From contig JAJYZB010000002.1 in NCBI GenBank assembly GCA_021800275.1, positions 70,997 to 134,996 of the forward strand: a DNA stretch of 64,000 nt, given 5' to 3'. Below, in pieces: positions 9,020-61,074 of the stretch (position 1 is the first letter of the stretch; each line of letters begins with the position of its first letter). Position numbers and translations under genes: made by a program. A model generated the notes under the pieces. The model was not told where the DNA came from. It saw only the letters and a program-made list of their open reading frames with translations, and did not search any database. This DNA comes from a bacterium (GTDB lineage: Bacteria; Vulcanimicrobiota; JABDET01).

Positions 9020-9072
9020 AAGGACAAAGGCGATATGCAGATACTCATTCTCAACAAAACAGAGGAATACCG

Positions 9073-10201: not shown

Positions 10202-11906
10202 AGAGTTTGAAGCTCCTGTTTTCAAACCAAGCTCAAATGGAAAAAGAGGGAGCATTCTCCTTTTATCCCTCTTTATGATGATCATCTTATTTTTATTGGG
10301 AACTGCTCTCTTTGTACTTCTTCCCACTAATTTTTCCGTGATCATGAAAGAACAAAATGATGCTCAAGCCCGATATGCGGCAGATGCTGGCATTCAGGTG
10401 GCTTCTGCCCTGATTTCTGATGATATTCAAAACGGAGAAGCTGACGAAATTCCTGGAGAACTAGATTCCTCTTCTGGCAGTCCACTTGCTCCTTGGAAGT
10501 ATCAAGTCCAAATAACTCCTGGAGCAGAAAACGGCTCAGGTTCTTTATTAAGTTATGCTCTTGAATCCACTGGAACCAATGGAACTTTCAGCAAAAGGAT
10601 CACCACTGTGATTGAACAGGAAAGTTTTGGAGAGTATCTTGTTTTTACTAATTCAGAAATAGCCCCGGATGGTTCGACACTCTGGTATGTTCCAGGACTA
10701 ACACTCATGGATGGACCTGTTTTTACCAATGGACAATTTAATGTTGACATCCCTGAGAATTATTATCAAGATGGGTTCTGCTGTGACAGCAGCGGAAATA
10801 ACCTCCCTCCATCCCCCTTTTTTCTCTCTACTGCAACAAGTGTCTCTCCTCCAAGCTACCAGTACCCTGACGGCGTGAATTATGGGGGTTCACCTCCTTA
10901 TGACAGCAGTGGAAACCCTATCCCAGGTGATTACGAAGATATTTATAAAGGGGGAAGATCCGATCTTATAACAGGAGCAAAACCCATCCCGTTTCCAACT
11001 GGATATCTAAATATTCAAGATGCTTCATGGGGTGGAAACAGCGGATTTCCAACGGCTTCAGGACTCTATGTGAACCAATCACTAATTGGGACCAGCGCTC
11101 CAACTCATGGAAGAGGAAATCCATCATCTCAAAATTACCCTTATGTTACAACTGGCATCTACGTTCAAGGAACTGTGAATCAAATCACTATGGGAACTGA
11201 TCCAGTTTCTGAAAATTCAACCACTACTCTATCTCAAGGAGCCTCTGTGTACAAAATTACTTATGTGAACACAAATCCAGTTACCCTTCCTGCGGAAACA
11301 ATTGTCAATGAAAAACCAATTTCAGGGCCCAGGACGATCAACACAAACTCCCTGATCATCCGAAATAATAACCAATATTTTATCTATCAAGGACTTTCCA
11401 ATGGAACTATTTTTGTTAATGGGAATATTGGCTCCAGTTCAAGAGGAGGAATTTTGGGAAAAATTAAAGGGAAATACAGTGTCGCAGCCATTGGAAATCT
11501 CTATATTGATGGGAATCTTGATTATCAAGACACTCAGGCGGGGCAGCCCCCCACAAATTCCAATGACCTGCTGGGACTAATTGGAACCAATGTGATTATT
11601 GGAAACTCTGCTCCTTCCAATCTTACTATTTATGCCGATATCTATGCAGGAAAACAGAGCGACGGATCATTAAAAGGATGGGTCTATGCCCAAAATTTTG
11701 ATACAAGACAAACTGGAACTCTGCAGTTATTCGGCGGAGTAGTTTCAGTTTACCGTATTACAACTGGAATGATTGATCTTTACACTGGTGAAATGTTGAG
11801 TGGATACGCAAAAACACTCCACTATGACCCCCGCCTAGCCCAAACTCCTCCCCCTTATTTTCCAACAACAGGAAAGTTCAGAACGATTTACTGGCATGAA
11901 GAATAA
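10134..11906 (+). CDS. Large PilX-N-like minor pilin / pseudopilin-associated protein with G/N/S/T-rich extracellular region
   Basis: GAGGTG 8 nt before the ATG; 'KRGSILLLSLFMMIILFLLGTALFVLL' resembles the PilX N-terminal domain; 590 aa. Confidence 0.45.
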   Translation: MQQDRIKLLPLRQSKSSSFHKSKEFEAPVFKPSSNGKRGSILLLSLFMMIILFLLGTALFVLLPTNFSVIMKEQNDAQARYAADAGIQVASALISDDIQNGEADEIPGELDSSSGSPLAPWKYQVQITPGAENGSGSLLSYALESTGTNGTFSKRITTVIEQESFGEYLVFTNSEIAPDGSTLWYVPGLTLMDGPVFTNGQFNVDIPENYYQDGFCCDSSGNNLPPSPFFLSTATSVSPPSYQYPDGVNYGGSPPYDSSGNPIPGDYEDIYKGGRSDLITGAKPIPFPTGYLNIQDASWGGNSGFPTASGLYVNQSLIGTSAPTHGRGNPSSQNYPYVTTGIYVQGTVNQITMGTDPVSENSTTTLSQGASVYKITYVNTNPVTLPAETIVNEKPISGPRTINTNSLIIRNNNQYFIYQGLSNGTIFVNGNIGSSSRGGILGKIKGKYSVAAIGNLYIDGNLDYQDTQAGQPPTNSNDLLGLIGTNVIIGNSAPSNLTIYADIYAGKQSDGSLKGWVYAQNFDTRQTGTLQLFGGVVSVYRITTGMIDLYTGEMLSGYAKTLHYDPRLAQTPPPYFPTTGKFRTIYWHEE

Positions 11907-34356: not shown

Positions 34357-36627
34357 ATGGCAAAAATTCTGCTGGTTGAAGATGATGTCCATATTTTGAA
34401 AACTCTAGAGAAGATCCTAAAAGAGCGAGGATTTGAAGTTGTCACTGCTGCCAATGGCTTGGAAGCTATCGAATTAGCGCAGAAAGAAGAACTCTCAATG
34501 GTCATTACCGATGTAAGAATGCCTGGAATGGATGGGATTGAAGCCCTTGGAAAAATAAAAACTTATCAACCTGATGCCAGAAAATTAATTATCACAGGTT
34601 ATGCGGGAGATGATGCTCCAATTAGAGCTATTCATCTTTCTGTGGACGACTATTTAATGAAACCATTTTCCCCCGAAAAGTTTTTGCAAAGTGTTGAAAC
34701 AGCGATTCTGAAATATCAATCTGAAGCGCAAAAAACTGAGGCTGCAATTTTCTCTTCCAGCCTACAGCAAAGTCTTAGAACTCTTGTGCAGGAGATTGAA
34801 ACAAGAATTCCAAATGGAACTGAGCGTTCCCGAAGGATCTCTGAATTGGGAACAAAGCTTGGTCAAATAGCAAAACTTGAAAAAAATCAAACTGAAATCC
34901 TGCTTTTTCTTTTATCTTTCCATGATCTCGGCTATTTATCTTATTCAGATCAAGAACTGGAAAATTTACTTTCCATCAAACATGCCGAATGTCTGGGAAA
35001 AATTTTCAAAGGGATGCCCGGTGGTGAACAAATCGCGCTCCTTTACTTGAATCACCATATGCCTTTTGAAGAATCAGATGAAAATTTTTCTATCCTGCCT
35101 CATCTCCTTTTCCTCAGCGAGTCTTTCGAAAACTTAATCTCTACAGGGCTCAGCTCAAAAGAAGCTCTGCAGACCCTGTTAAAAGATGCGGGAAAACTTT
35201 GGGAGCCTTCTCTCCTCGAGATGCTTGAGGATGCTTTGTTCAATCCTCTGCAGAGATTTTCTGAAAAACCCTCCTCAAAAATTTATGAAATACTCCTGCA
35301 TCTCGGAAAAACTTATACTTCTATCGGAGAAATTGAAACAGGAAAAGCGGCCATCCAAAAACTTTTAGAAAAAGAACACGAGATAGATGATCCAGATTTT
35401 AAGTTCAGGCTTCATCTCGCCTTGGCGCAGAACTTAATTCGAGATCAGAAATTCTTGGAAGGGGAGGAAGAAGCCTGCAGAACCCTTGAAACCGCTCTGA
35501 CTTTAAATCTCAGCCCACTCATGATCTCATCGGTTCTTCTGGAAATTGTTCTAGCAAGACTGTTTCTGGAAAAGACCGATAAACTGGAAGAATTCCTTGA
35601 AAAGGGAAAAAGCCATTTTGAAAAATTCAGCGATAAACGGAATTTAGCTCGAACCGAGCTCTATTTTTCCATTCTTGCCGGGATCCTCAAAAAAAGTGAT
35701 CACGCCAAAAGTCATTTCGAAGTCTGCAGAAAGATTGTGGAAGAAGAAAAACTTGAAGACTTCTGGGAATCCGAATTCTCAGCCTTGAAACTTATGAAAA
35801 CACGCTCGGATTCTGATCAGGTCTTCAATTCGAACATTCCTGAAGAAAAAGGACTTAAAATTTACTCTCTTGGACCCGTTCGGATTTATCGAGATGGAAC
35901 TATGATTTCAGAAGAGGCATGGAAAAGCAAAAAAGGAAAAATTCTCTTAAATTATCTTCTGCTGAACATGGAACGGCCTGTTTCAGAAGATAAATTATGC
36001 GATCTATTCTGGCCTCAAGGGGATCCAGAAAGATCCAGAAAAAATCTCCATCATGTCATCTATCTTTTAAGAAGAATTCTTGAACCAGACTTAAAAGATG
36101 GGGCTGATTCGCAGTATATTCTTTCACAACACAATGCCTATCAATTTAATAAATCATCAACCTACTGGTGGGACGTCCATGAGTTTAAAGAAAATATCCA
36201 GAAAGCCCAGTCTTTCTGCAGTTCGAAACAGCACGAAAAAGGGATTGAAACCATACGAAAATTAGAGAATCTTTATGGAGGGGATCTTCTAGAAGATTAT
36301 CTGGAAGAAACCTGGTGCAATTTTGAGCGAGATAGATTAAAGGAACCATTCTTAAATTTGCTTTTAGCCGCTTCATCCTATTATGAACAAAAACAAGACG
36401 ACGTGATGGCTTTAGAATTTGCCCAAAAAACCCTATCCCTGGAGCCATTCCGTGAAAAAACGGCTCAACTGGTCATCCATCTCTTATATAAAAGCGGGAA
36501 AAGAACAGAAGCAGTCAGAAAATATCAAATTTGGTGTTCCCAATTAGAAAAAGAGTTAAATTTAAAGCCCTCACCTGAATTCGCTGCGCTTTATGAAAAA
36601 ATGGTGATTGGCAGCACCTCTTATTGA
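34357..36627 (+). CDS. Multidomain regulator: REC receiver, degenerate HD-GYP-like domain, OmpR-type winged helix and BTAD (SARP-like) domain
   Basis: REC 'ILLVEDD...MVITDVRMPGMDG'; middle 'LSFHDLGY...NHHMPFEE' (HD-GYP-like without the GYP signature); 'IYSLGPVRIYRDGTMISEEAWKSKKGKILLNYLL' wHTH followed by a helical BTAD-like tail. Confidence 0.6.
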   Translation: MAKILLVEDDVHILKTLEKILKERGFEVVTAANGLEAIELAQKEELSMVITDVRMPGMDGIEALGKIKTYQPDARKLIITGYAGDDAPIRAIHLSVDDYLMKPFSPEKFLQSVETAILKYQSEAQKTEAAIFSSSLQQSLRTLVQEIETRIPNGTERSRRISELGTKLGQIAKLEKNQTEILLFLLSFHDLGYLSYSDQELENLLSIKHAECLGKIFKGMPGGEQIALLYLNHHMPFEESDENFSILPHLLFLSESFENLISTGLSSKEALQTLLKDAGKLWEPSLLEMLEDALFNPLQRFSEKPSSKIYEILLHLGKTYTSIGEIETGKAAIQKLLEKEHEIDDPDFKFRLHLALAQNLIRDQKFLEGEEEACRTLETALTLNLSPLMISSVLLEIVLARLFLEKTDKLEEFLEKGKSHFEKFSDKRNLARTELYFSILAGILKKSDHAKSHFEVCRKIVEEEKLEDFWESEFSALKLMKTRSDSDQVFNSNIPEEKGLKIYSLGPVRIYRDGTMISEEAWKSKKGKILLNYLLLNMERPVSEDKLCDLFWPQGDPERSRKNLHHVIYLLRRILEPDLKDGADSQYILSQHNAYQFNKSSTYWWDVHEFKENIQKAQSFCSSKQHEKGIETIRKLENLYGGDLLEDYLEETWCNFERDRLKEPFLNLLLAASSYYEQKQDDVMALEFAQKTLSLEPFREKTAQLVIHLLYKSGKRTEAVRKYQIWCSQLEKELNLKPSPEFAALYEKMVIGSTSY

Positions 36628-36637
36628 TTGGCATAAA

Positions 36638-38533
36638 TTAAAGCTGATCTAAAGCTCTATCAATCACAGACGCTTTTTCGAGAGAAGGCTTTATATTTTC
36701 TACTGCTGGGATTTTTAAAACAAACTGACTCCCCTCCCCCTTCTTGCTTTTCACCTGAATTTCCCCACCCATTGATTTGATAATTCCAAAACTGACTGAC
36801 AATCCTAACCCTGTCCCTTTTCCGATCTCTTTTGTCGTGAAAAACGGATCAAAAATTTTAGAAAGATTCTCTTCTGAGATTCCGCAGCCATTATCCGAAA
36901 TGCGCAAAATACTTTCTCGAGAATCTCCAAAAATATTGATCTCAATCACACCTGGGTTTTCTTTTTTTTCAAAAATCGCGTCTCTGGCATTTGATATTAA
37001 ATTCGCAAGAACCTGTATTAAATTATCAGGAACTCCATACACAGGCAGGCAGTCTTGAAAATCCGCTTTAACTTGAATATTATCCAGAGTTAACTGCTTA
37101 TCCCATAAATTCAAAGCCGCTGCAGCAGCCTCCTCAAGCTTGAAATTCTTTTTTTCATCAGCAGATTTTCTGGAAAAATTTAAAAGTTTTTGAACGATTC
37201 CCTGACATCTCTGAGAAGCTTGAAGAATGGTTTCAACAGCATCTTTATCCTCAGGTTTCTGCTGCAGCTGCCAGGCATTCAACACAATGGCTCCAAGGGG
37301 ATTATTAATTTCGTGCGCAACTCCTGCGGCCAGCTGCCCAACAGCAGCCAGTTTACTAGTTTCAATCAGCTGCGCCTGCATTTTTTTTAAATGATCGTTC
37401 GCCTGCAGGACTTCCTGATACAAAAAACTATTATTGACAGATGAAGAAATCTGACCCGCTAAAATCGTCAGAAATTTCTCCTGCTCTTCTCCAATGAAAG
37501 GGCGGCTGAGAAGCAGATATCCCAGGATTTCTCTTTCTGTTCTGAGAGGAATGACAGCTAGGGGAAGAAGGGCTTTAGGAAAAAGATGAGTGGGATGTTT
37601 GATGACACTCGTCAATTCGCCTTTTTCATTTAGAAAATCATTCTCCATCAAAGTCTCGGGCAGAGGGCTTCTCTCAAACTCCCCACAAGAATTTTTTTTA
37701 CAAAAAGAATCTTTCTCTTTTAAATAGATACTCACTCCAGAGGCTTTCAGTTTTTCCATAAGACCCATTAAAATCTCAGGAGCCATCTTCTGAAAATCCA
37801 AAGCCGCGGACAATTTTTTAGAAAGTTCGTAAATAATTTGCAGCTTTTCTTTTTCAACGTAAGATTTAAATCCAAATTTAAAAACAAAAAAAGCCACAAA
37901 AAATGAAACTGGGATAAAAAGAAAAAGGGGAGTTGAAAGGGAATGCTTTGCAATCGGAACAAAAGGCGCTAAAAGATAAAAAGGCAGTTCGAAAGCATAT
38001 CCGGCGCCAATCTCTTTTAATGAGAACTTCTCTTGAAATCTTCCAGCTTGAAAGACAAATGTCGTAAAATCGGTAAGAAGATGAAAAATAACAGCTGCTG
38101 CCAAAGGAAAAAATAAAGCATCTGAAAAGTTAAAAAAGTTTATTTTGCCCCCAATCTGTCCATAAAATAGAGAGGTCAGTCCTGTTGTGAAAGTATATCT
38201 GCTCACATTTGAAAAAATGGTATCAAAATTTATGCGGCCTTTTCTAACGAAGAAAAAAATAAGGAAGCCAAAGAAAACGGGTAGAACAGTTTGATTTCCC
38301 CATAATAAAATATAACAAAAAATCAGCGGATTTTCAAATCCAAAAGTAATGCTTGACCAGGGAAGTCGAACATACGTAAAAAGGGCGAGAACCAGAAATA
38401 CAGCTCCTAAAACAGTCTCTGTCCAATGGCTGAAAGGATGGCGCAAAAAAGCGCGCGCTAAAAATAAAATTGACACAATAGAGATAAGAATCTCAACAGC
38501 TAAGAATTTAAATCTCTTCTTATTAATGCTCAA
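36638..38533 (-). CDS. Membrane sensor histidine kinase (multi-TM N-terminus, HisKA plus HATPase_c)
   Basis: 'AAGVAHEINNPLGAI' H-box; 'ISDNGCGISEENLSKIFDPFFTTK' and 'GTGLGLSVS' ATPase motifs. Confidence 0.8.
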   Translation of the reverse strand: MSINKKRFKFLAVEILISIVSILFLARAFLRHPFSHWTETVLGAVFLVLALFTYVRLPWSSITFGFENPLIFCYILLWGNQTVLPVFFGFLIFFFVRKGRINFDTIFSNVSRYTFTTGLTSLFYGQIGGKINFFNFSDALFFPLAAAVIFHLLTDFTTFVFQAGRFQEKFSLKEIGAGYAFELPFYLLAPFVPIAKHSLSTPLFLFIPVSFFVAFFVFKFGFKSYVEKEKLQIIYELSKKLSAALDFQKMAPEILMGLMEKLKASGVSIYLKEKDSFCKKNSCGEFERSPLPETLMENDFLNEKGELTSVIKHPTHLFPKALLPLAVIPLRTEREILGYLLLSRPFIGEEQEKFLTILAGQISSSVNNSFLYQEVLQANDHLKKMQAQLIETSKLAAVGQLAAGVAHEINNPLGAIVLNAWQLQQKPEDKDAVETILQASQRCQGIVQKLLNFSRKSADEKKNFKLEEAAAAALNLWDKQLTLDNIQVKADFQDCLPVYGVPDNLIQVLANLISNARDAIFEKKENPGVIEINIFGDSRESILRISDNGCGISEENLSKIFDPFFTTKEIGKGTGLGLSVSFGIIKSMGGEIQVKSKKGEGSQFVLKIPAVENIKPSLEKASVIDRALDQL

Positions 38534-38539
38534 TGTGGA

Positions 38540-39082
38540 TTAATGATCCACCCGCGGACCTAAAATTGGACCCACTGCACTACACATATTATCCATTAAA
38601 TTTTCCGGATTTTCCCAATTGAAATCTTCTTCAACTTTTTTTCTTCCCAGATCGTAGCTCCTAATTGTATTGTAAATGGAAGGCTGTGAAGAAAAATTCT
38701 GAGGATCGATCCATGGACCCTGAATTGGACCCTGGCTGTCAAATCCTGATGAAATTCCACCTGTCCCGAAGAAAGAACTCCATGGAGAACCAAGCCCTGA
38801 AAGAAATCCAGGAGAGTATAAAGGCGAAGAATACGGACTGCCGTAAAATGAATTCAACCAGTTTCCTGACCACGGGCTTTCACAAAACTGTTCACAAGGA
38901 GGGCAGCTGCAGAACCCGGAATCAGACCCCAAAGCATTCTCCCAGGAAGACTTAAATTGAAGTTGGGGATACGAGGATGAACAAGGATTAAAAGAAGGAC
39001 TTGCCGGACAGCTGCATGCTACTTCCGATGGAGCAGAAAAATCAAAAAACTGATTTCCCGAAAAAATCTCTCCTATGCTCAT
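38540..39082 (-). CDS. S/P/G/C-rich low-complexity hypothetical protein
   Basis: 180 aa ORF; TTTACA-N16-TATAAT promoter-like sequence and a GGGGG RBS upstream. Confidence 0.4.
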   Translation of the reverse strand: MSIGEIFSGNQFFDFSAPSEVACSCPASPSFNPCSSSYPQLQFKSSWENALGSDSGFCSCPPCEQFCESPWSGNWLNSFYGSPYSSPLYSPGFLSGLGSPWSSFFGTGGISSGFDSQGPIQGPWIDPQNFSSQPSIYNTIRSYDLGRKKVEEDFNWENPENLMDNMCSAVGPILGPRVDH

Positions 39083-40172: not shown

Positions 40173-40354
40173 GTCAGGGATCGTTCTTGTCCTCTATTGT
40201 TTCTCCTTTTCTTCTTTTTTCTTCATTTTCCACAGATTTTTGACATCGCATTATATTTATGTCAGATTATTGTCTTGAACTTAAAATTTTAAAAAAAATG
40301 AAGATTGACTATTTCACAATTGTCGTGATATTAAAAACAAGAACCTCAACAAGA

Positions 40355-40384
40355 TTTACAAAATGTTAAACTTCTTGTCATAAC
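40355..40384 (+). promoter_or_regulatory. Sigma70-like promoter (TTTACA-N18-CATAAC) with a conserved AAAATGTTAAACTT spacer motif
   Basis: About 50 nt upstream of the 40436 gene; 24 of 31 positions are shared with the 43123-43153 element. Confidence 0.4.
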
Positions 40385-40435
40385 TTAGCAGCAAGAAAGT
40401 GTTATGATAAGGGGAACAGCAGGAGGGTGAGAATT

Positions 40436-41716
40436 ATGGGCGGCATTAGCGTAGCATTAGGAAACATAGAAAAATCTGCAGTTAATTCAGTTGATAATAT
40501 TGGAAATACGCTTGGACATGATCTCGGCATAAACAAACCAGCGACTCCACCACCCCAGACACAAACTCCTGATGTTCAAACACAGACACAAGCTCAGGGT
40601 GGAACTCAGCCCCAAACTCAGGATAAAACCTCAATCTTATCCCAAGCAAAATCCACTCTCACAAACTTTGGTCATTCTGTGGCAGGGGCTTTAGGAGTCG
40701 GTAAAACCAGCGCAGGCGCTGTGGCGACTGCTGCAGTCACAGGAGGTGCAGTGGCAGGACCCCTTGGAGCTGCTGCAGCAGGTGGAGTAACGGCAGCAGT
40801 TGTGGGTGGAGCAAGTCTTGCAGCTAATCAGGAAAACAAACAAGGGGCAGATGCTAGCGCAGGCTCAATTCTTAAAGATAATCTTGTCAGTGGAGTAACA
40901 GGAATTGGCCAGGATCTAGGACTGCTTCAAAATTCTCCTCTCACAAAGACAGGTTATCCTCCAATTTATGGAGGAACTCAAGCACAGGCGAATCAAATCT
41001 GGGGATACATGGACGGAAAACCTCCTATGCCTCTTGCTGACAGGCAAGCCGTTCATTCCATCCATGTGGGATCCAATTACACAACAGGAGCTTTTCAAAC
41101 TGTGGCTAAAGGAGCGAATGGACAAGACCAGAATTTCGGAGATATTTATCTCAATACAAATGATTTAAAAAATCAAGGGCAGTATGTTGTTCTTCATGAA
41201 TCAGGACATGCGGTAGAAATACACAATGGAACCTTACAGGGTCCGACAGCGAGTGTCTGGAATGGACCAGATATCTACGGCACAGCTGCAGCTGATTCTC
41301 AAGCAGGGGAAGCGAATAATCCAGCAGCAGAAACTTTTGCTGATGCTTATGCAGCATATTACAGTGGAAATGGAGCTGCTCTGCAGAAAGTTGCTCCCCA
41401 GGAATATAATGCCATTGCATCAGGAGCTTACAAAGCCCAGGGACCTTCAACTGTTACTACAGGAGATCAAGTGATGAGTGGACTCACTAATTTTGGAGAG
41501 GCAGTCTCCTCTGGAATTGGGTGGTTAGGAAACACAATTGGAGGAGCTGTTGGAGCAGGGTTAGCCGCTGCGGGGAATGGCTTTCTAGCGAATACCGGAT
41601 TTGGAGCCAATGCTTTTGCAGGATCAGCTGCTCCTGTTTTGCAAGGAATAGGAGCTGGCAATCTGGCGGATAATTCTGCTGGCGGCGGACCGAGGGTTCC
41701 AGTCTGGGGTGGGTAA
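40436..41716 (+). CDS. HExxH zinc-metallopeptidase-like protein with anthrax-lethal-factor-like (ATLF / M34-like) catalytic core and Gly/Ala-rich flanks
   Basis: 'VVLHESGHAVE' followed ~40 aa later by 'AAETFADAYAAYY' (HExxH plus E-x-F-A-E/D-A-F/Y); AGGAGG 9 nt before the ATG at 40436 (ORF track opens at the GTG at 40427). Confidence 0.5.
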   Translation: MGGISVALGNIEKSAVNSVDNIGNTLGHDLGINKPATPPPQTQTPDVQTQTQAQGGTQPQTQDKTSILSQAKSTLTNFGHSVAGALGVGKTSAGAVATAAVTGGAVAGPLGAAAAGGVTAAVVGGASLAANQENKQGADASAGSILKDNLVSGVTGIGQDLGLLQNSPLTKTGYPPIYGGTQAQANQIWGYMDGKPPMPLADRQAVHSIHVGSNYTTGAFQTVAKGANGQDQNFGDIYLNTNDLKNQGQYVVLHESGHAVEIHNGTLQGPTASVWNGPDIYGTAAADSQAGEANNPAAETFADAYAAYYSGNGAALQKVAPQEYNAIASGAYKAQGPSTVTTGDQVMSGLTNFGEAVSSGIGWLGNTIGGAVGAGLAAAGNGFLANTGFGANAFAGSAAPVLQGIGAGNLADNSAGGGPRVPVWGG

Positions 41717-41727: not shown

Positions 41728-43089
41728 ATGTTTGTGTCTAAAAATAAAAATTATTCTTTACAGGTTTATCTAGGATTTTTAAATTTAACAGCATTTTTTT
41801 GTTTATTTTTCTCATTGCACAAAAACTCTTTTGATATCAGCGAAGTCTTACTAGGATTCTGGGTTCTCCTTTTCTTTTTTGCGAATATGCTTTCAACAAA
41901 AGTTTTTATAAAAAATTTCGAAATGTACTTAAATGTTTCTTCTGCCATCAGCACAGCGAGTTATTTTCTATTCGGTTTAACCCCTTGCCTTTTAGTCATT
42001 ATCTTCGGATTTTCAAGTTTTTTTCTATGGAAGCGATGGCATTTTTATAAGTGGGCAGGAACAGTCTCATTTTGGGTGATCAGTTATTCGATTGATAGTT
42101 TTTTTATTTCTCTAATTCAAACCCCTTTTTCTTATCCATGGATTATCGTAAAGGTGATTGTTTTTCAAGCGATTTTTATTCTACTTGGAACCCTTCTTGC
42201 TGATCTTCTCATCAGTTTTGGGCAAAAAATTTCATTAAAAACACTTTTACTTTCAGAAACAAAAGAAGTTTTGTCAGGAAATCTCATGGAAACTTTCATT
42301 TATTCCATGCTTGCCTGCATCCTGATGTCTCTCTGGCTCCACACCCCCTGGGCAGTCTCCCTTCTTTTCATTCCATTTTACGGATTAAAACTCGTGATGG
42401 AAAGCGGACAGAAAATTCAAGCTGAACTGGCAAAAGCCATGAATGCCTTAAATGACATTTTAGAGGCAAAAGATGAATACACTGAACGGCATACAGATCG
42501 AGTGGCTAAATATGCAGTGATCATTGCTAAACATTATGGAGGGTTCTCTGATGAACAATTAGACCTGATCGCCAAAGTGGGGAAGATTCATGATGTCGGA
42601 AAAGTGATGGTCAGAGATGATGTATTGAAAAAACCAGGAAAATTAACTCCTGAAGAATATGAACACATCAAACTTCATGTCCAGAAAGATTTTGTCACAA
42701 ATACAATCCCTCCTGAATATCCGCTTGCCAAATGGCTGCAGCTTGCCAGACTGCATCATGAACGATATGATGGCAAAGGATATCCGTTTGGATTAAAAGG
42801 AGAAGAAATTCCGATAGAACTCAGAATTATCTCTGTGGCTGATGCCTGGGATGCCATGACCACCCGCAGGGTTTATCGGGCAAGTCTCGCAAATGACACC
42901 GCTCTGCAAACTCTTAAAGAGGGGGCTGGAACTCAATGGGATCCAACCGTTATCAACGCTTTCTTCAAAGCTTATGATTCAGGACAAATTCAAGCGCTTC
43001 AAGCTGAACACAAAGCAAAGCTGCAAAAGCAGAAATGGGATGCCCTTCAAAAACTAGACCAGTATCTGTCTCTTGAAAGCAGTCTTTAA
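41728..43089 (+). CDS. Membrane-anchored HD-GYP phosphohydrolase, paralogue 1
   Basis: Multi-TM N-terminus; 'KIHDVGKV' and 'HHERYDGKGYP' HD-GYP motifs; starts 11 nt after the metallopeptidase-like gene. Confidence 0.8.
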   Translation: MFVSKNKNYSLQVYLGFLNLTAFFCLFFSLHKNSFDISEVLLGFWVLLFFFANMLSTKVFIKNFEMYLNVSSAISTASYFLFGLTPCLLVIIFGFSSFFLWKRWHFYKWAGTVSFWVISYSIDSFFISLIQTPFSYPWIIVKVIVFQAIFILLGTLLADLLISFGQKISLKTLLLSETKEVLSGNLMETFIYSMLACILMSLWLHTPWAVSLLFIPFYGLKLVMESGQKIQAELAKAMNALNDILEAKDEYTERHTDRVAKYAVIIAKHYGGFSDEQLDLIAKVGKIHDVGKVMVRDDVLKKPGKLTPEEYEHIKLHVQKDFVTNTIPPEYPLAKWLQLARLHHERYDGKGYPFGLKGEEIPIELRIISVADAWDAMTTRRVYRASLANDTALQTLKEGAGTQWDPTVINAFFKAYDSGQIQALQAEHKAKLQKQKWDALQKLDQYLSLESSL

Positions 43090-43098: not shown

Positions 43099-43123
43099 AT
43101 AGGCTTAAGACCGGAGACCAAAA

Positions 43124-43153
43124 TTTACAAAACGTTAATCTTTCCATCATAAT
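43124..43153 (+). promoter_or_regulatory. Sigma70-like promoter (TTTACA-N18-CATAAT) with a conserved AAAACGTTAATCTT spacer motif
   Basis: About 50 nt upstream of the 43204 gene; near-duplicate of the 40355-40384 element. Confidence 0.4.
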
Positions 43154-43203: not shown

Positions 43204-43488
43204 ATGAATGTAGCCTTGATTCGTTCTCACAACACAGGAAGCATTGTTTCAGGCAGCACAGGAACAGCCGCAGCAAAAGCTCTTAATACTGCTCCCCCAC
43301 ATGTCAACTCTCAAGTCCGAGACACAGCTTCAATTTCGTCCCCAACAGTGGATGCTTTTGCAAAATTCCACAATTCCATAAAAGGAGCATTAGACGGCAC
43401 CAGTGGAAGTAAAGAGAAGAATTCTCCAAAATTTCATCATAAAAACCACGGCAAAATCACAATAGGGATTGGAAACCCACATCCTTAA
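43204..43488 (+). CDS. Small S/T/G-rich hypothetical protein
   Basis: 94 aa ORF with AGGAGG 8 nt upstream of the ATG; its stop lies inside the apparent start region of HD-GYP paralogue 2. Confidence 0.45.
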   Translation: MNVALIRSHNTGSIVSGSTGTAAAKALNTAPPHVNSQVRDTASISSPTVDAFAKFHNSIKGALDGTSGSKEKNSPKFHHKNHGKITIGIGNPHP

Positions 43489-44866
43489 GGAGTCACAAGA
43501 AAACCTCTTGTCAGAACCTAAGAATCTCTCCTTAAGAATTTTCCGCTGTGCTTCAATTATAATTGGAATTACAGCTTTTCTTTATGGAACTTTTCACTCC
43601 AACGCAGCAGTAAATCTTTTTTCTCTTTTTGTTTGGAGCTTATTTCTTTTTTGCGCCAGTATGCTGGAATGTAAAATCTCAATTAAAAATCTCACTTTCT
43701 ACTTGGATATTTCTAATGCCATTGGAATTGGAGCTTATTTTCTTTTTGGATTAAAATTCTTTCTGCTGGTTCTAGGGTTAGGAAAACTGATGTTTTATCT
43801 ATTGAAAAAATACCCTCTTTATCCCTGGTGGGCTCAAGCCATTACTTTCTGGTGTATTTCTTATGTAATCCCAAGCTTATTTATCCCATACAATTTAGTT
43901 CATCTCACTTTCCCAGAAAAAATACTTCATATTATCCTTTTCTCGGTAATCTCAGGTCTAATTTTAATTCTGCTTATGGATCTTTTAAACGGTTTTCAGG
44001 AGAATATCTCTCTAAAAGAAATGCTCATGATCGAAATAAAAGAAGGGCTATTTATAGATTTTATCCAGATCTTCATTTTTGCCATGCTTTCCTTTGACTT
44101 AATCTTCCTCTGGCTCCACACCCCCTGGGCAGTCCCCCTTCTTTTCATCCCATTTTACGGGTTAAAACTCGTGATGGAGAATGGCCAGAAGATCCAGGCT
44201 GAACTGGCAAAAACCATGAATGCCTTGAATGACATTTTAGAAGCCAAAGATGAAGACACAGAAAAACATACTGAAAGGGTTTCTAAATATGCCGTGATCA
44301 CTGCTAAACATTATGGAGGATTTTCTGATGAGCAATTAGACCTGATCGAAAAAGTGGGAAAACTCCATGATGTCGGAAAAATTTTGGTCAGAGATGACGT
44401 ATTGAAAAAACCAGGCAAATTAACTCCTGAAGAATATGAACACATCAAACTTCATGTCCAGAAAGATTTTGTCACAGATACAATCCCTCCTGAATATCCG
44501 CTTGCCAAATGGCTGCAGCTTGCCCGACTGCATCATGAACGATATGATGGCAAAGGATATCCGTTTGGATTAAAAGGAGAAGAAATTCTGATAGAACTCA
44601 GAATTATTTCAGTGGCTGATGCCTGGGATGCCATGACCACCCGCAGGGTTTATCGGGCAAGCCTCTCAAACGAAACCGCGCTGCAGACTCTAAAGGAAGG
44701 GGCTGGAACTCAATGGGATCCAACCGTTATCAACGCTTTTTTCAAAGCTTATGATTCCGGAGAAATTCAAGCGCTTCAAGCTGAACACAAAGCAAAGCTG
44801 CAAAAGCAGAAATGGGATGCCCTTCAAAAACTAGACCAGTATCTCTCCCTTGAAAGCAGTCTTTAA
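43469..44866 (+). CDS. Membrane-anchored HD-GYP phosphohydrolase, paralogue 2
   Basis: Same motifs as paralogue 1; the N-terminal TM region also aligns; the start at 43469 is a TTG and is uncertain. Confidence 0.8.
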   Translation: METHILKESQENLLSEPKNLSLRIFRCASIIIGITAFLYGTFHSNAAVNLFSLFVWSLFLFCASMLECKISIKNLTFYLDISNAIGIGAYFLFGLKFFLLVLGLGKLMFYLLKKYPLYPWWAQAITFWCISYVIPSLFIPYNLVHLTFPEKILHIILFSVISGLILILLMDLLNGFQENISLKEMLMIEIKEGLFIDFIQIFIFAMLSFDLIFLWLHTPWAVPLLFIPFYGLKLVMENGQKIQAELAKTMNALNDILEAKDEDTEKHTERVSKYAVITAKHYGGFSDEQLDLIEKVGKLHDVGKILVRDDVLKKPGKLTPEEYEHIKLHVQKDFVTDTIPPEYPLAKWLQLARLHHERYDGKGYPFGLKGEEILIELRIISVADAWDAMTTRRVYRASLSNETALQTLKEGAGTQWDPTVINAFFKAYDSGEIQALQAEHKAKLQKQKWDALQKLDQYLSLESSL

Positions 44867-44875: not shown

Positions 44876-45037
44876 GCCTCAAAAATATTCTGAGCGCTTT
44901 TTAAACAAAAAGTAAACTTAAAAACGCGAAGTTAATTTTCGGTGAACATTTGCTGACTGCCGTTGACTCTTAAAATTTTGTCGTGTAAAATATAATTAGT
45001 GAAGAGCAGTAAAAAATAAATGGAGAGGAGAAGTGCT

Positions 45038-46429
45038 ATGACATTTACGTTTGATGATGTGTTTGAGAGTCATTTAGATTTCCCCGAAAAATCTCTTTAT
45101 TTTTTCGATCTTTTTTTAGCGGCAACTCTTATTTGCCTTGCTGCCGTTACTCTGCTTTTCCCTTTTCACTTCAACCTGCAAACTTTTCTTTTATGGGGAA
45201 TTTTAGCGTGGGTAGGGCACAGACGCAAATTTTTTCTAAAAATCAAACAAACTTCTTACACCCTGGATCTCGCGCATCCAATTTATCTGGCTGCATTCTT
45301 CCTCCATGGACTTCCTTTTGCTCTCTGGGTTTTCACTGCTTCAGGAGCGATTCAAGTTATTCTCGCAAACAAAGGTATCAGGCGCTTTGGTCTGGAAGTA
45401 GGAACCACTGTTTTAATCTCAACCCTCATCTATTCAATCCCATTTTTCCGTTCACCCATCAATAAAACTAATTTGCCCCAAGCTCTGCTCTTCATCCTGT
45501 TATTTCAGGCTCTTTATGTTCCATTTCATGCCATGATGCTCAGACTTTTTCAAGGAAGACGAACCAATCTCAAATCTTTCGAAAAAAATTCAAAAGAAAC
45601 ATTCGACTTGCTAAATATTAAAGAAATAATAGAGGAATTGGGTTTTCAACCCTTTCTATCCAGTCTGGTCATTCTAATTTCTTTATGGCACGAACTTTTA
45701 ATCCTCTTCTTTTTCTTGTTCGTGTCAGACATAATTTTTTCCCTGGAAGAACAATCCCGCCTTGGGAGAGGACTCGAGCAGACCACCCAAATTTTAAATC
45801 AAGCCCTCTTGACAAAAGATGGAACCACAGAACGCCATACCGAAAGAGTCAGGAGATATGCGGAACTCATTGCCAAAGAAATGAGACTCTCTCCTAAAGA
45901 AATTGAAAAAATTGGCTGGGCTGCTAAACTCCATGACATTGGAAAACTCTTTATTAAAGACGAAGTGTTAAAAAAAGCGTCTAATTTAACACAGAACGAA
46001 TACGAACACATCAAGCTTCACGTAAAACTGGATAACCTTCTGGATCCTTTGTTTAAAATACACAATCCCCTTGCTGAATTCATACACGTGGGGAGACTGC
46101 ACCATGAACGATACGATGGACAAGGATACCCTTTCGGATTAAAAGCGTCAGAAATCCCGCTTGCAGCTCGCATTATTTCTGTTGCTGATGCCTGGGATGC
46201 CATGACTTCCAACCGCCCCTATCGAAAACCCTTTGAGGAAAAACTAGCTCTGAAAATCTTAAAACAGGGGGCAGGGACTCAATGGGATCCTGAAGTTGTT
46301 TTCATCTTTAATCACCTGTATGATTCTCCAGAAATGATGGGCATCAGAAATGAATATCAGGATTGGAAAAAAACCGAAACAAAAAGAACACTGCAGAGAT
46401 TCGCAAGGCTCCTGGCATTTGAGACGTAA
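45038..46429 (+). CDS. Membrane-anchored HD-GYP phosphohydrolase, paralogue 3 (more divergent)
   Basis: 'KLHDIGKL' and 'HHERYDGQGYP'; GAGAGGAG 8 nt before the ATG at 45038 (ORF track opens at 45020). Confidence 0.75.
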   Translation: MTFTFDDVFESHLDFPEKSLYFFDLFLAATLICLAAVTLLFPFHFNLQTFLLWGILAWVGHRRKFFLKIKQTSYTLDLAHPIYLAAFFLHGLPFALWVFTASGAIQVILANKGIRRFGLEVGTTVLISTLIYSIPFFRSPINKTNLPQALLFILLFQALYVPFHAMMLRLFQGRRTNLKSFEKNSKETFDLLNIKEIIEELGFQPFLSSLVILISLWHELLILFFFLFVSDIIFSLEEQSRLGRGLEQTTQILNQALLTKDGTTERHTERVRRYAELIAKEMRLSPKEIEKIGWAAKLHDIGKLFIKDEVLKKASNLTQNEYEHIKLHVKLDNLLDPLFKIHNPLAEFIHVGRLHHERYDGQGYPFGLKASEIPLAARIISVADAWDAMTSNRPYRKPFEEKLALKILKQGAGTQWDPEVVFIFNHLYDSPEMMGIRNEYQDWKKTETKRTLQRFARLLAFET

Positions 46430-56090: not shown

Positions 56091-59000
56091 TTACCCCCTC
56101 TCTGCCAGAATCACTTTGATCTGTTTAGCAACAGTACTTTGATTCCCGGCTCCATTGAATGCGCGAACTTGAATTTGCTTGATGTTTGAAACAGGGATAC
56201 CTAAGAAATTAAAATAAAACTTTTCTTTTTTTGAATCAAAAAGCCCATTTTCAGGGACCGCTTGAAACCAGGCTCCACCTTTCATTCGAATTTCAACGTT
56301 CCTAACATAACTTCCCAAATCCTCTGCTTTTCCCTCTACATGAAGAAATCCATTCTGCACATCTACTTTCGTCACAGAAATCTGAGGGATGGTGGAATCA
56401 AACGTTAAATTTTTAATCACTTTCTTCTCTATTATGACCTGTGTAGGAAGATTAGAAGGGGCATTAGAAATAGCAAGTTTCAAATTTAACGTCCCATTTT
56501 GGTGTATAAAATTCAATGGGATTATAAAAGGAACTGCTCCTTTTATAGGAGTCGAAAAAAGATTGGAATAAACTTTTTTCTCCTTTCCATTTCTCTGAGT
56601 CCAGATTTGAAGAAGGAGAGTATTCCCATCAGAATCCTGCAGAGTTCCACGCAGCATTGATTTAAAGTCAATCACATCTCCTGATTTGGGCAGCAAGAGG
56701 TTAACAACAGGGGGAACACTTTCAGGTTTCCAAAAAATCTGTACTCCACTTAGAAGAGGACTCTTTCCTCCAGAGGCTTTAGCAAGAGATATCCTGAACT
56801 GCAGATATCTTCCATTTCCTACAATCTTTCCTCCTGAAGAAGGATAGGGGGGTGACCATGAACTCCAAGAAGAATTAACGATAGGAGTGCTGCCAGTCCT
56901 TGTTCTGACCACAATATCAGAACCTTTGGGTGTTTTCCCATACCATATGAGTCTTCCCCACAGCGAATTAATCCCAGAGTTCAGGACCTGAGACAAAAAT
57001 ACTCCATGATTAAACTCTTCATCCGAAAAATGGAAGAGTCGAGAAGAGATTCCCGAAACAACAAAATCATCCCCCTTCCCGCTCCCTTTCAATCCAATTT
57101 TTAAAGAACTGTCCAGTGAAAGCGCTCCATTCCATAAAAGAGAAACAGCTCCGTTATGGCGGATAGAATAAAGCGCCGCTGGAATTCCAGTTCCCGCCAA
57201 CAAAGTTCCGCGCTTTATCCCTAGCCAGGTAACATCCTGTGAAGGCAGAGTGGCTAAAAGACGCAGAACACCATCAGGTTTAAGCTTATAAACCATTCCA
57301 TTTCCTGAAACACCAATGAATAAATCCCCTGCTGAATTTTCGACCAAAGAAAGAACTGCCTGGGCATTTAAATCAGCTGCAGTTTGAACTTTCCCTTTTC
57401 GGCTAATCCGTAGCAAAAGCCCGTTGTTTGCTGTGCCTGCGTAAACGCCATGAGCATCCGGACAAATGACAGTGATGTGTGACTCCGCTGTTCTAGCAAA
57501 AAGAATGGGAGGATGCTCAGGATCCAGGCGATTTATCGTATAAAGGGCGCCTTCAGGATTCCCTGCGGAAAAATAAACGGTATTACCATAAGGAATAATA
57601 TCCCAAATATATTTTTGAGGAATCTGATAATCATGAATGATTTTCCCATGAGGACTAAGCCAGTAAAGACGTCCATCCATAGTTCCAGCTAACAGATCTC
57701 CGTTTGGTAAAGAAGCCAGACTTAAAATTGCAATACTTCTAGAGTCAAAAAATAAAACTTTCTTTTTTTTAGTAATTTTATAAATTTTTCCAGGGTTCGC
57801 AGTTCCAACATAGGCAGCTTCATTAAACCAGGCAAGTGAAAAAAGATTGTTTTGTTTAAAATACGCTAAAGTCCTTAAATCAGGAGAAATTAAAAGATTC
57901 CCATCTGGTGAGACGGCAAGATGTTTCAGTATTCCATTCTGCCAGCTCTGCATCCGATCAAAAGAAAGTGTCATCACATTGCTCGGCTGCTGCAAGTTCA
58001 CCATGGGAAGAGAAGGTAATGGGTTAGCAATTCCTTTCTTCTCTCCCTGGGTTGAAATTCCAGATAATTTCTTCTTGACCGTTTGCTCAGATCCAGTTTT
58101 ATTAGATAAATCAGCCTCTGCAGGCAAATCACTTGACAGAAATCGAAATCCATTCTGAGATGTCCCAGATAAAATGGGATGGGGCTGAACAGGAAGAATA
58201 TGAATCTGAGGCTGCTTCAGCTTGGGCTGAAAGCTTCCCTCAACCATTACGTGTTTAATTATATTCCCCAAGATGACATATGGCATTCGATAGACTTCTT
58301 TCAAAGTATCGGGATGTATAACTAAATTTTCAGAACCTGCTGTTTTTAAAAGAGCGGCAAAAGGGGAGGGAAAATTCGAATACGATTTTCCTTCCCAATT
58401 AATGGCCCCTCTAGGCAGCCCAAGGCGAACTATCAAAGAATTAAAAGGAGGCGATTTTTGAATCTGATGAATAATCTCTCTAATATTTAAAGGAGATGCC
58501 TCTGGAATATTCATGTTCCTTTTCAGCAGATCATTGGCTGTTCCCCCAGCCACTCCAACCTGAATCATTCCTTGAACATCAGACGGAATTTTAATTCTCA
58601 ATTTTTTTTCTACCACTTTCTGGTCATACGGTTTCAGCCAAACTCTAACTCCTAAAAATCTGCCTGGTCTAACTTCTTCTCTATCTAAAACCACTTTCTG
58701 CAGAGTTGCTTCCCTGATCCCTGACTTAACATTGACTCGAACATTCACTTTCAATAAATGAACTTTTTTAAAATTATTTTCCAGTACTTTTTCAATTGGG
58801 GCTAGAACGTCTAAGGTCGTAATGGCTGAAATGCTCGCTTGAGAAAAAAGAAGATTTTTCTTTCGAATTGGAGGATATCCTTGAAATTGCACCGTGTAAG
58901 CAAGTGATGCTGTTGCTCCTCCTAATAATTTTGTAACAGCAGGAATCGCCTGACTCACTGCCAGAGTCGCAAGTCTTGGGGTCAAAACAGAAGATCGGAT

Positions 59001-60056
59001 AATTCGAACATGAAACTCTTTTTTTATCCTTCTCCGCTTGTCGAAAACAGTGATGTTAATCGGTATAAGAGAAGCTGGTTTGCCCAAAAATCCCCCAATT
59101 CCATAAAGCCTATCCTGGGCTATTTGCCCCACGGGTCGAATAGGAGAAGCAAACTTAAAAGGAAGCTCCAAACTTGGAAGGATATAATGGACATAGGTTT
59201 GGACCATTGGAAAATCCACATTCCCAAGGAAAAGGAATGGATGGCCGAAAGCCAAAACCTGAGATCCACTGCGGTAAGTCAGTGTCCCGGTAGCCACCAA
59301 ATTCATGTCGCCTTCCATTAAAGCAACTCCAACAGATTGTCCGGGCTCAACAGGAGGAGGATCTTTCACTGTCATTTTTCCTCCCCCAGGAACGATCGCA
59401 TCCATTGGGAAGATCCTCCCAAGAGTTTCTAATCCTTCGGCATTAAATCCTGAAGCTGATAAGACTCCTCCCAATGGGACTAAAGACAATGAATTGGGGG
59501 AAGCATTGAAATCTTCTCGACTCTCAGCATTCTGCCCTCCGGGAATGTCAGCAGTTATCGTGCTGACCATTTTCCCGCCAATCCTCAAGGCTTTTCTTAA
59601 GTGATAAGCGCCATTATAAGCGAGAGGAAGATTCTTTTCAGGGAGATTCGTTGTCAACATGGCATGAATAGGGACGACTCCAGCAACAGCGGCTTTCGTA
59701 AAGGGCCATCCATAGGCAATGGCTCCAGCTAATTTTCCGTCAAAATAAACAGGAGAACCACTCATCCCAGCGACCAGGCCAATTCCTCTCTTAGCGAGGA
59801 AAGGGCTCTCAACTTTTACGAGAATCAAATCAGCCCCTGAAATAAACTTTGGAATAACTCCTAAAACAACCACCTTAAACGTCGAAATTTTAGTTCCCTC
59901 AAAAACTGTTTTGCCATACCCAACCATTCCGCGATGCAAATTCCGAGCAGAGATAAAATGTCCTGAAGCAAAAGCAGGAAAAATTAAAAGGATGGCAGCA
60001 AAGGCAAAAAAGAAAAAGCGTCTCATCTTTCTGATTTCAATTTTTCTCCGTTTCAT
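56091..60056 (-). CDS. Very large secreted protein: N-terminal SpoIVB-like (S55) serine peptidase domain plus long beta-rich C-terminal region
   Basis: 'GLVAGMSGSPVYFDGKLAGAIAYGW' serine-protease motif; ATG at 60056 gives 'MKRRKIEIRKMRRFFFFAFAAILLIFPAFASG', which looks like a signal peptide (ORF track opens at 60155, overlapping tsaD). Confidence 0.6.
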   Translation of the reverse strand: MKRRKIEIRKMRRFFFFAFAAILLIFPAFASGHFISARNLHRGMVGYGKTVFEGTKISTFKVVVLGVIPKFISGADLILVKVESPFLAKRGIGLVAGMSGSPVYFDGKLAGAIAYGWPFTKAAVAGVVPIHAMLTTNLPEKNLPLAYNGAYHLRKALRIGGKMVSTITADIPGGQNAESREDFNASPNSLSLVPLGGVLSASGFNAEGLETLGRIFPMDAIVPGGGKMTVKDPPPVEPGQSVGVALMEGDMNLVATGTLTYRSGSQVLAFGHPFLFLGNVDFPMVQTYVHYILPSLELPFKFASPIRPVGQIAQDRLYGIGGFLGKPASLIPINITVFDKRRRIKKEFHVRIIRSSVLTPRLATLAVSQAIPAVTKLLGGATASLAYTVQFQGYPPIRKKNLLFSQASISAITTLDVLAPIEKVLENNFKKVHLLKVNVRVNVKSGIREATLQKVVLDREEVRPGRFLGVRVWLKPYDQKVVEKKLRIKIPSDVQGMIQVGVAGGTANDLLKRNMNIPEASPLNIREIIHQIQKSPPFNSLIVRLGLPRGAINWEGKSYSNFPSPFAALLKTAGSENLVIHPDTLKEVYRMPYVILGNIIKHVMVEGSFQPKLKQPQIHILPVQPHPILSGTSQNGFRFLSSDLPAEADLSNKTGSEQTVKKKLSGISTQGEKKGIANPLPSLPMVNLQQPSNVMTLSFDRMQSWQNGILKHLAVSPDGNLLISPDLRTLAYFKQNNLFSLAWFNEAAYVGTANPGKIYKITKKKKVLFFDSRSIAILSLASLPNGDLLAGTMDGRLYWLSPHGKIIHDYQIPQKYIWDIIPYGNTVYFSAGNPEGALYTINRLDPEHPPILFARTAESHITVICPDAHGVYAGTANNGLLLRISRKGKVQTAADLNAQAVLSLVENSAGDLFIGVSGNGMVYKLKPDGVLRLLATLPSQDVTWLGIKRGTLLAGTGIPAALYSIRHNGAVSLLWNGALSLDSSLKIGLKGSGKGDDFVVSGISSRLFHFSDEEFNHGVFLSQVLNSGINSLWGRLIWYGKTPKGSDIVVRTRTGSTPIVNSSWSSWSPPYPSSGGKIVGNGRYLQFRISLAKASGGKSPLLSGVQIFWKPESVPPVVNLLLPKSGDVIDFKSMLRGTLQDSDGNTLLLQIWTQRNGKEKKVYSNLFSTPIKGAVPFIIPLNFIHQNGTLNLKLAISNAPSNLPTQVIIEKKVIKNLTFDSTIPQISVTKVDVQNGFLHVEGKAEDLGSYVRNVEIRMKGGAWFQAVPENGLFDSKKEKFYFNFLGIPVSNIKQIQVRAFNGAGNQSTVAKQIKVILAERG

Positions 60057-60069
60057 CTGGTTCTCTGCA

Positions 60070-61074
60070 TCAACTAAGAAACCCTTCCAATTGAGGAATA
60101 ACATCCATGGTAAGTTCTTCTTGAACTCCTTTTTGATATAAAAAACTAGCGGCACAAGCGATCATTGCGGCGTTGTCAGTGCAAAATTTGGGGGAGGGGT
60201 AATACAGAGAAAAATTAAGTTCTTGAGAGGCCTGTTTTAGTTTCTCCCTTAAACGGGTGTTGCAGGCAACTCCACCTGCAAGCAAAACCTGCTTAATGCC
60301 GGTGTTGGAAATCGCTCGCTTAGTTTTTTCCACCAGAGGATCTACCACTGCCTCCTGAAAAGAGGCAGCAGTATCTTCTATGGAAAAATTTTTAAACTCC
60401 CCTCTTTTCTGCGCATTCATCACAGCGGTTTTCAATCCGCTGAAACTGAAATCCAGAGAATTAGATTCTAAATAGCTCCGAGGAAATCGAATTTTCTTTG
60501 GATCTCCTTTTGCAGCCAGCTTATCAATGATAGGCCCGCCAGGATATCCTAAACTCAAAATCCGCGCCACTTTATCAAAAGCTTCTCCTGCGGCGTCATC
60601 ACGGGTTGTCCCAAGAGTTTCCCAAGAAAAATGCTCTCTCATTTTAACGAGGCAGGTATGCCCTCCTGACACAACAAGAGCGATAAAAGGAAACTCTAGT
60701 TCGGAGTGCTCTAAAAAGTTAGCATAAACATGAGCAACCAGGTGGTTGACACCCACCAGAGGGAGATTCAAAGCAGCAGCCAGGCTTTTCGCTGCTGCTG
60801 CACCTACCAACAAAGCTCCTACCAGACCTGGACCTTTTGTGACAGAAATTAAATTCACCTGATTCCAAGAAATGGCGCTCTGCTGAAGCGCCTGATCTAT
60901 TAAAATATTAATATTCTCAAGATGTTTGCGTGAAGCAATTTCAGGGACTACTCCTCCATACTCGCTGTGGATCTCAACTTGAGAAGATATCAAGTTTGCT
61001 TTTATTTTAACGGCATCTTCCACAAATGCGACTGAAGTTTCATCACAACTGGTCTCAATTCCTAAACAAATCAT
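60070..61074 (-). CDS. tsaD: tRNA N6-adenosine threonylcarbamoyltransferase TsaD
   Basis: 'MICLGIETSCDETSVA' N-terminus, 'GVNHLVAH' motif. Confidence 0.9.
   Translation of the reverse strand: MICLGIETSCDETSVAFVEDAVKIKANLISSQVEIHSEYGGVVPEIASRKHLENINILIDQALQQSAISWNQVNLISVTKGPGLVGALLVGAAAAKSLAAALNLPLVGVNHLVAHVYANFLEHSELEFPFIALVVSGGHTCLVKMREHFSWETLGTTRDDAAGEAFDKVARILSLGYPGGPIIDKLAAKGDPKKIRFPRSYLESNSLDFSFSGLKTAVMNAQKRGEFKNFSIEDTAASFQEAVVDPLVEKTKRAISNTGIKQVLLAGGVACNTRLREKLKQASQELNFSLYYPSPKFCTDNAAMIACAASFLYQKGVQEELTMDVIPQLEGFLS

Follow-up and report, generated by a model that had tools for sequence, protein, structure and literature searches.

Introduction

Among the closest known systems to the gene described here are PPEP-1 (Zmp1) of Clostridioides difficile, PPEP-2 and PPEP-3 (MEROPS family M34; Pfam ATLF, PF07737), together with catalytic domain IV of anthrax lethal factor (LF), also an M34 peptidase. 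PPEP-1, or ZmpI, is a factor of the low-c-di-GMP (cyclic di-GMP) state with proposed adhesin cleavage (PMC9286219), and a degenerate ATLF-like domain occurs in a PilZ-like protein of Leptospira (PMC12943098). Here we analyse a gene at positions 40436..41716 of a 64,000-nucleotide (nt) stretch of bacterial DNA (assembly GCA_021800275.1, contig JAJYZB010000002.1; the whole stretch is called the window below), which lies directly upstream of a gene for a polytopic HD-GYP protein. Our preferred reading, to which we give a probability of roughly 0.55, is that it encodes a divergent M34-like zinc peptidase that is associated with the membrane and works as a module with the HD-GYP protein.

Unlike LF, a 776-residue, four-domain toxin that depends on protective antigen (PA) and carries a signal peptide, the protein from the window has a single small domain, lacks a PA-binding domain and does not occur in a toxin context. 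MtfA (Mlc titration factor A, M90) and Peptidase_Mx are also comparable but differ in partner and pathway, and a family profile of the kind used below reached only E ~0.6 against MtfA structures.

The other relevant system is LapG/LapD of Pseudomonas, where LapG is a Cys protease that carries a signal peptide and works in the periplasm, and LapD is a receptor with degenerate GGDEF-EAL domains and a periplasmic domain. As in that system, the gene for the protease lies in one conserved operon with a gene for membrane-bound c-di-GMP signalling, and control of proteolysis by c-di-GMP status may apply here by analogy, as a working model. In contrast to LapG, however, the protease is a zincin in which no signal peptide was recognised. 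Its partner is of the HD-GYP type, keeps the HD and HHExxDGxGYP motifs intact and has a membrane domain whose hydrophobic segments, unlike those of LapD, are not separated by any large hydrophilic stretch. In the full-text literature, we found no paper linking HD-GYP to clostripain, and for HD-GYP together with lethal factor only the Leptospira paper.

Results

A rare protein family with a conserved zinc-binding core

The features of the peptidase gene and its product are as follows.

40436..41716, + strand: peptidase gene, 426 residues, no Cys (list of open reading frames and direct reading)
40421..40426, + strand: Shine-Dalgarno sequence AGGAGG, 9 nt ahead of the ATG (sequence inspection)
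40670..40825, + strand: Gly/Ala/Val-rich hydrophobic segment with small-xxx-small repeats, residues 79-130 (Kyte-Doolittle maximum 1.64, residues 104-124)
40946..41440, + strand: conserved catalytic core, residues 171-335 (~170 residues), with a very probable M34-like zincin fold
41195..41209, + strand: HESGH, with H254, E255 and H258 as predicted two zinc ligands and general base, on the predicted active-site helix
41330..41350, + strand: ETFADAY, E299 to Y305, with the predicted third zinc ligand on the next helix (aligned to LF E735 in EFFAEAF)
41456..41713, + strand: Gly-rich C-terminal tail, 27 % Gly by composition, ending in GGGPRVPVWGG

The long open reading frame (ORF) that ends at 41716 can be opened from 40427 or 40436. 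We consider the ATG at 40436 the likely start codon, because AGGAGG lies 9 nt before it and because close homologues open with MGGIS. The identical protein has been called on 12 contigs (ENA, Logan, NCBI, JGI), representing several independent assemblies. An earlier note on this DNA, made from the letters alone, had described an HExxH peptidase core embedded in Gly/Ala-rich sequence, and both elements are borne out: residues 1-165 contain 16 % Gly and 16 % Ala, residues 341-426 contain 27 % Gly and 17 % Ala, and low complexity extends over ~55 % of the protein. HESGHAVE starts from residue 254, AAETFADAYAAYY follows from residue 297, and Glu 299 lies 41 residues past the second His. The N-terminus, MGGISVALGNIEKSAVNSVDN, has by inspection neither a basic n-region nor a hydrophobic core of >=10 residues; on this inspection of the N-terminus no Sec signal peptide was recognised, and a lipobox is likewise missing, as the sequence contains no Cys. 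The GC content of the window is ordinary, with no compositional anomaly at the peptidase locus.

The family is very rare (~11 clusters in 1.84 billion representative proteins). A word-indexed search of 5.8 billion proteins returned four clusters besides the query, and an exhaustive HMMER search of the 1.84 billion representatives returned ten proteins at E<=1e-3, three of them close, six distant (24-34 % core identity) and one, P0009, discarded as spurious (a fungal-type NACHT/DUF7104 repeat protein); a third search added one more distant relative, P0013. Both scans of metagenome contigs gave no match and the scan of genome contigs gave a single locus. Searched as a single sequence, the peptidase matched no Pfam or NCBIfam family above threshold and nothing in the PDB, and neither Pfam nor NCBIfam includes the family.

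Conservation is confined to the core. In an alignment of 12 cores (24-87 % core identity), HExxH keeps its Glu and its second His without exception and E-x-F-A is nearly invariant, while the flanks are not conserved. The hydrophobic segment of residues 79-130 is seen in the closest relatives only and is missing from P0004 and P0005, and a 'GP' near the C-terminus is common to the closer relatives. In two of the 12 members, P0004 and P0005, which come from independent samples, CESGH replaces HESGH (TGT and TGC codons).

In the same two proteins the D-I/V-Y-G loop is without its Tyr, and these active-site changes may be correlated.

Relationship to M34 peptidases

The relationship to M34 is significant at the profile level only. 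When a family profile (A5) built from the 12-sequence core alignment was run against the PDB, all 16 matches at E<=0.01 were M34 enzymes, with E-values of 3.7e-6 to 1e-4 for lethal factor, the best match, and 4.5e-4 for PPEP-1/Zmp1. The LF alignment spans HExxH (HEFGHAVD), the S-Y-G-R-T-N loop, EFFAEAF and the AP..F helix, and covers SYGRTNEAEFFAEAF. A profile built from the four closest relatives gave only a spurious nanobody match against the PDB. Taken singly, the distant relatives fall just below threshold for ATLF, M90 (MtfA) and Peptidase_Mx; the window protein does not reach the threshold of Pfam M90 (MtfA, PF06167; 26.2 bits), and matches to Peptidase_M91 ('effector protein') are weak and sub-threshold.

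An AlphaFold2 (AF2) model from the 12 sequences (predicted local distance difference test, pLDDT, 80; predicted template modelling score, pTM, 0.79) shows a beta-sheet, a long HExxH helix (core residues 77-99), a low-confidence loop, and E299 on the next conserved helix, while a model from five sequences was unusable (pLDDT 38). By comparison of the model with solved structures, the closest folds are M34 peptidases and the best structural matches are the PPEPs. As modelled, the protein has what defines a gluzincin, namely HExxH, a downstream Glu and a zincin fold of beta-sheet, active-site helix and Glu helix. We also considered a metzincin reading of HESGHAVEIH, with H263 as third ligand, and rejected it: H263 is not conserved in distant relatives, E299 is, and the HExxHxxGxxH spacing is wrong.

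LF, PPEP-1 and the distant relatives share a Tyr 7 residues before the Glu ligand (Y728 in LF, Y178 in PPEP-1); it is kept, for example, in GYARTNPKEDF of P0008, and the Tyr of the profile aligns to that of LF. Altogether, an M34-like zincin fold can be assigned with high confidence, the nearest known kin is M34, and the proteins form a separate, very divergent gluzincin family that lies below the curated Pfam threshold. We regard an active metallopeptidase as probable from the sequences, because the general base and two ligands are invariant or nearly so.

A conserved HD-GYP gene directly downstream

With the peptidase stop codon ending at 41716 and the following ATG at 41728, the gap is the 11 nt that the earlier note had reported, and there is no terminator-like site on the + strand between the two genes. 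The downstream genes in the window are the following.

41728..43089, + strand: HD-GYP1, 453 residues, multi-pass membrane N-terminal domain followed by an HD-GYP domain (HD_5/HD, E=4e-28)
43204..43488, + strand: ORF of 94 residues that overlaps the start of HD-GYP2 by 20 nt, publicly called in several assemblies
43469..44866, + strand: HD-GYP2, tandem paralogue of HD-GYP1
45020..46429, + strand: HD-GYP3, which public gene callers start at 45038

In HD-GYP1, the motifs HDVGK and HHERYDGKGYP are intact. Of the seven lineages nearest to the window protein, six have a polytopic HD_5 gene directly downstream of the peptidase, in agreement with the link to c-di-GMP turnover that the earlier note had proposed. 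Core identities to the window protein and distances to the downstream gene are given by locus.

Window, P0001: 100 % core identity, 11 nt to the HD-GYP gene
L017, P0002: 87 % core identity, 17 nt to the HD-GYP gene
L019, P0003: 74 % core identity, 17 nt to a gene cut by the contig end, family untyped
L005 (YP4.bin17), close relative: 73 % (tblastn), 17 nt to the HD-GYP gene
L006, P0004: 61 % core identity, 0 nt to the HD-GYP gene
L008, P0005: 52 % core identity, 5 nt to the HD-GYP gene
L011, P0007: 32 % core identity, 4-nt overlap with the HD-GYP gene
L009, P0006: 32 % core identity, 140 nt to the HD-GYP gene

The genomes of this lineage are labelled Candidatus Eremiobacterota and that of P0006 Armatimonadota, labels that are approximate. 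The partners are orthologues of window HD-GYP1, with similarity over the full length in L005, L006 and L008 (71 %, 48 % and 46 % identity) and over most of the protein in L009 (32 %). In the closer loci the membrane domain too is detectably related, while in L011 the similarity is limited to the HD-GYP half (57 %) and the membrane domain has no detectable similarity. Upstream neighbours vary among the more divergent loci (ArgRS in L006, CopD in L008, an HU-like gene in L011). Among close relatives, the whole block of the window is syntenic, with a response regulator with BTAD, a histidine kinase, an epimerase, the peptidase, the HD-GYP genes and LepA.

The Armatimonadota-labelled locus L009 has the order M34-like peptidase, HD-GYP1, Peptidase_C11, HD-GYP2. 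Its C11 protein (clostripain-like, E=3e-25; 8370-9911, + strand, 513 residues) has no signal peptide, and carries a short hydrophobic peptide at its start, a polar linker after it and RPYGYY repeats towards the C-terminus. Since it sits directly before the second HD-GYP gene (10046-11269, + strand), a second, unrelated protease occupies the equivalent position. The case for a module is strengthened by this different protease class holding the same position in one genome, and we consider functional coupling of the peptidase to the HD-GYP protein likely.

P0011 faces a response-regulator gene with HD_5 and BTAD domains.

A shared promoter-like element

Two kinds of repeated element lie upstream of genes of the locus.

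40305..40331, + strand: TTGACT-N12-TGTCGTG element, 105 nt before the peptidase start codon
44963..44989, + strand: second TTGAC-N12-TGTCGTG copy, upstream of HD-GYP3
40354..40373, + strand: 20-nt block ATTTACAAAATGTTAAACTT / ATTTACAAAAYGTTAAWCTT (TTTACA-N18-CATAAC; CATAAY), upstream of the peptidase

In the window and in L005, L006, L008, L009 and L017-19, the pattern T[TA]GAC-N11-14-TGTCG[TA] is always on the gene strand and placed only upstream of peptidase, HD-GYP and C11 genes and of one SLT gene, and in the loci outside the window it is always intergenic, while shuffled sequence gives 0.46 matches per 64 kb. Outside the window the element starts at 9367 in L005, 12457 in L006, 3875 in L008, 5927, 8306 and 11986 in L009, 4871 in L017 and L018, and 4898 in L019, and as T[TA]GAC-N12/13-TGTCGTG(A) it spans loci with different phylum-level labels. 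The pair of C11 and HD-GYP2 in L009 sits behind the same motif. The site at 40305 was also scored as sigma-70-like (TTGACT-16-GATATT), and sigma-28-like and ECF-like (extracytoplasmic function) readings were weighed: the spacing fits sigma-28, and the -10 is poor for both consensuses. The element may serve as a promoter for an alternative sigma factor or as an operator.

The 20-nt block is repeated at 43123-43142, upstream of the 94-residue ORF and HD-GYP2; counting a third copy with three mismatches (4361-4380), the window holds two exact matches and one inexact match against 0.01 expected. An Rfam scan of the whole 64 kb returned no family at gathering threshold, neither a c-di-GMP riboswitch nor a tRNA.

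Other features of the locus

HD-GYP1 and HD-GYP2 share 91 % identical DNA over their 3' 804 nt, which encode the HD-GYP domain, while their N-terminal membrane domains have ~44 % protein identity, a pattern that points either to gene conversion in the catalytic half or to fast divergence in the sensor half. No homology was found for the 94-residue ORF. That it, or the spacer before HD-GYP2, might be the remnant of a duplicated peptidase was considered and rejected: no similarity in protein or coding DNA was seen, and only the upstream 20-nt block is common.

Further upstream, 34357-36627 (+ strand) encodes the 756-residue response regulator with BTAD and 36638-38533 (- strand) the HisKA/HATPase_c kinase. 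Next to P0011, at 7190-9577 of L014 (Armatimonadota), the corresponding response-regulator/BTAD protein carries HD_5. Between the histidine kinase and the epimerase, 38540-39082 (- strand) is a 180-residue ORF rich in Ser, Pro, Cys, Phe and Trp, with no family match; close relatives have an unannotated gene of 152-180 residues at this place, a correspondence by position. The neighbourhood as a whole looks like an island of c-di-GMP and two-component signalling. Elsewhere in the window, 56091-60155 (- strand) encodes a 1353-residue protein whose sole Pfam match is a short segment of SpoIVB-type Peptidase_S55 (E=1e-6).

Discussion

The protein is a new and rare form of an enzyme of known type, and its conserved partner had not been described. 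In the explanation that we prefer, the core would bind zinc through H254, H258 and E299, with E255 as predicted general base. Its low-complexity flanks (an N-terminal peptide, a Q/T/P linker, the Gly/Ala-rich hydrophobic stretch and the Gly-rich tail) would hold the enzyme at the cytoplasmic membrane, without Sec export, and residues 79-130 are a possible membrane-associating region. A conserved promoter of its own would drive the peptidase together with the next gene, encoding the polytopic HD-GYP c-di-GMP phosphodiesterase, as one module in which proteolysis is coupled to the sensing or hydrolysis of c-di-GMP. The HD-GYP protein might gate or position the protease, or the protease might process its HD-GYP neighbour or some target in the membrane or at the surface while c-di-GMP falls, and any one such mechanism of gating or processing can be put forward only tentatively. 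The logic would parallel that of LapD/LapG and of PPEP-1 (ZmpI) under c-di-GMP control, with other components. It is also possible, if still speculative, that polytopic HD-GYP proteins of Eremiobacterota- and Armatimonadota-like bacteria and an interchangeable upstream protease (M34-like, or C11 in one genome) make up an unrecognised two-gene module with a special promoter or operator, T[TA]GAC-N12/13-TGTCGTGA.

Several observations weigh against this explanation. The earlier note had spoken of a lethal-factor-like gluzincin and had suggested a Pfam ATLF check; the fold is upheld by the profile match to LF (3.7e-6) and the AF2 model, but formal ATLF membership is not: the full protein scores 12.5 bits (E=0.12, residues 297-327 only) and the core alone 14.2 bits, against a gathering threshold of 27.4 bits, and the match is limited to the C-terminal helix. 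Foldseek against the PDB gave nothing significant (best E=0.54), its top matches being the zincins BlaR1 and selecase. Only 12 sequences underlie the AF2 prediction, pLDDT varies between 58 and 80 among its five models, and for the loop expected to carry the catalytic Tyr it is 53-60. In the clade of the window protein, an insertion of ~10 residues displaces this Tyr, the nearest being Y281, 18 residues before E299 and in the low-confidence loop, and the first zinc-binding His is a Cys in two members. Membrane association was judged from hydropathy only, and the segment concerned is absent from P0004 and P0005. The more distant P0008, P0010 and P0012 have no HD-GYP neighbour, and the synteny sample is a handful of metagenome-assembled genomes or loci that are partly linked by phylogeny.

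The displaced Tyr and the Cys in the place of the first ligand His in P0004 and P0005 also leave room for an unlikely alternative, that of a dead pseudo-peptidase whose zincin scaffold only binds and regulates the HD-GYP protein, comparable to the N-terminal domain of LF, to ATLF-like domains in Certhrax, in edema factor and, as D2, in Leptospira LIC_20136 and, in part, to the binding of Mlc by MtfA. Cys, however, can itself coordinate zinc. Throughout the family, its members at 24-34 % identity included, three positions vary little or not at all, namely the Glu of the general base, the second His and the Glu of the third ligand, whereas degenerate ATLF domains are without any HExxH (PMC12943098). 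A live protease could alternatively act in dispersal as PPEP-1 does, leaving the cell by an unrecognised export route to cut the cell's own surface adhesins and being co-expressed with phosphodiesterases so that detachment accompanies low c-di-GMP, with no physical coupling. We judge this improbable to a similar, very slightly lesser degree. The PPEPs are the best structural matches, PPEP-1/ZmpI sets a precedent as a low-c-di-GMP factor, and the peptidase gene would be co-transcribed with three HD-GYP genes, with which it also shares promoter motifs. No signal peptide was recognised, though, the window has no c-di-GMP riboswitch or other Rfam family at threshold, Pfam scans of the adjacent genes revealed no LPXTG or adhesin-like domain, and the very tight spacing of the two genes, which goes from a gap of 0 nt to an overlap of 4 nt, would sooner be expected of partners that interact.

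The earlier note had associated the fold with secreted toxins and polymorphic-toxin domains. An effector of that type acting on other cells, to which the HD-GYP gene would be adjacent incidentally or for purely regulatory reasons, has little probability, although the closest solved relatives include the LF toxin and the secreted PPEPs, Peptidase_M91 'effector protein' gives weak matches below threshold, and Gly-rich small-xxx-small stretches are present in some membrane-inserting toxins. Against it, the N-terminus is unlike a signal peptide and there is no lipobox Cys; Pfam and NCBIfam detect no LXG, RHS, PAAR, CDI or other trafficking domain; PADLOC gives no match; and no plasmid or phage relatives were found. 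The locus is instead chromosomal, syntenic and of ordinary GC content, its neighbours are HD-GYP, epimerase and LepA genes with no secretion-system association, and the conserved downstream gene encodes a signalling enzyme, with nothing pointing to an immunity protein. Finally, ~55 % low complexity and the lack of any Pfam or NCBIfam family above threshold might suggest a chance HExxH, or an ORF that is not real. This is already ruled out by the conserved core and invariant motif in 12 proteins, the significant profile matches to M34 structures and the confident zincin-like model, and is also countered by the good ribosome-binding site and the calling of the same protein in several independent assemblies.

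HD-GYP proteins are the least understood c-di-GMP enzymes, with few known partners or outputs. Should the gene pairing be incidental, the peptidase would be one more divergent gluzincin. If the coupled module that we favour is real, a conserved and translationally coupled protease partner would offer a testable route from c-di-GMP turnover to proteolysis. The more speculative module with an interchangeable protease would add to c-di-GMP signalling a new branch, proteolytic and on either the input or the output side, around HD-GYP enzymes. A coupled partner of the present kind would also give the fold of LF and the PPEPs a role other than that of a toxin, probably cell-associated, in uncultured phyla that are little studied.

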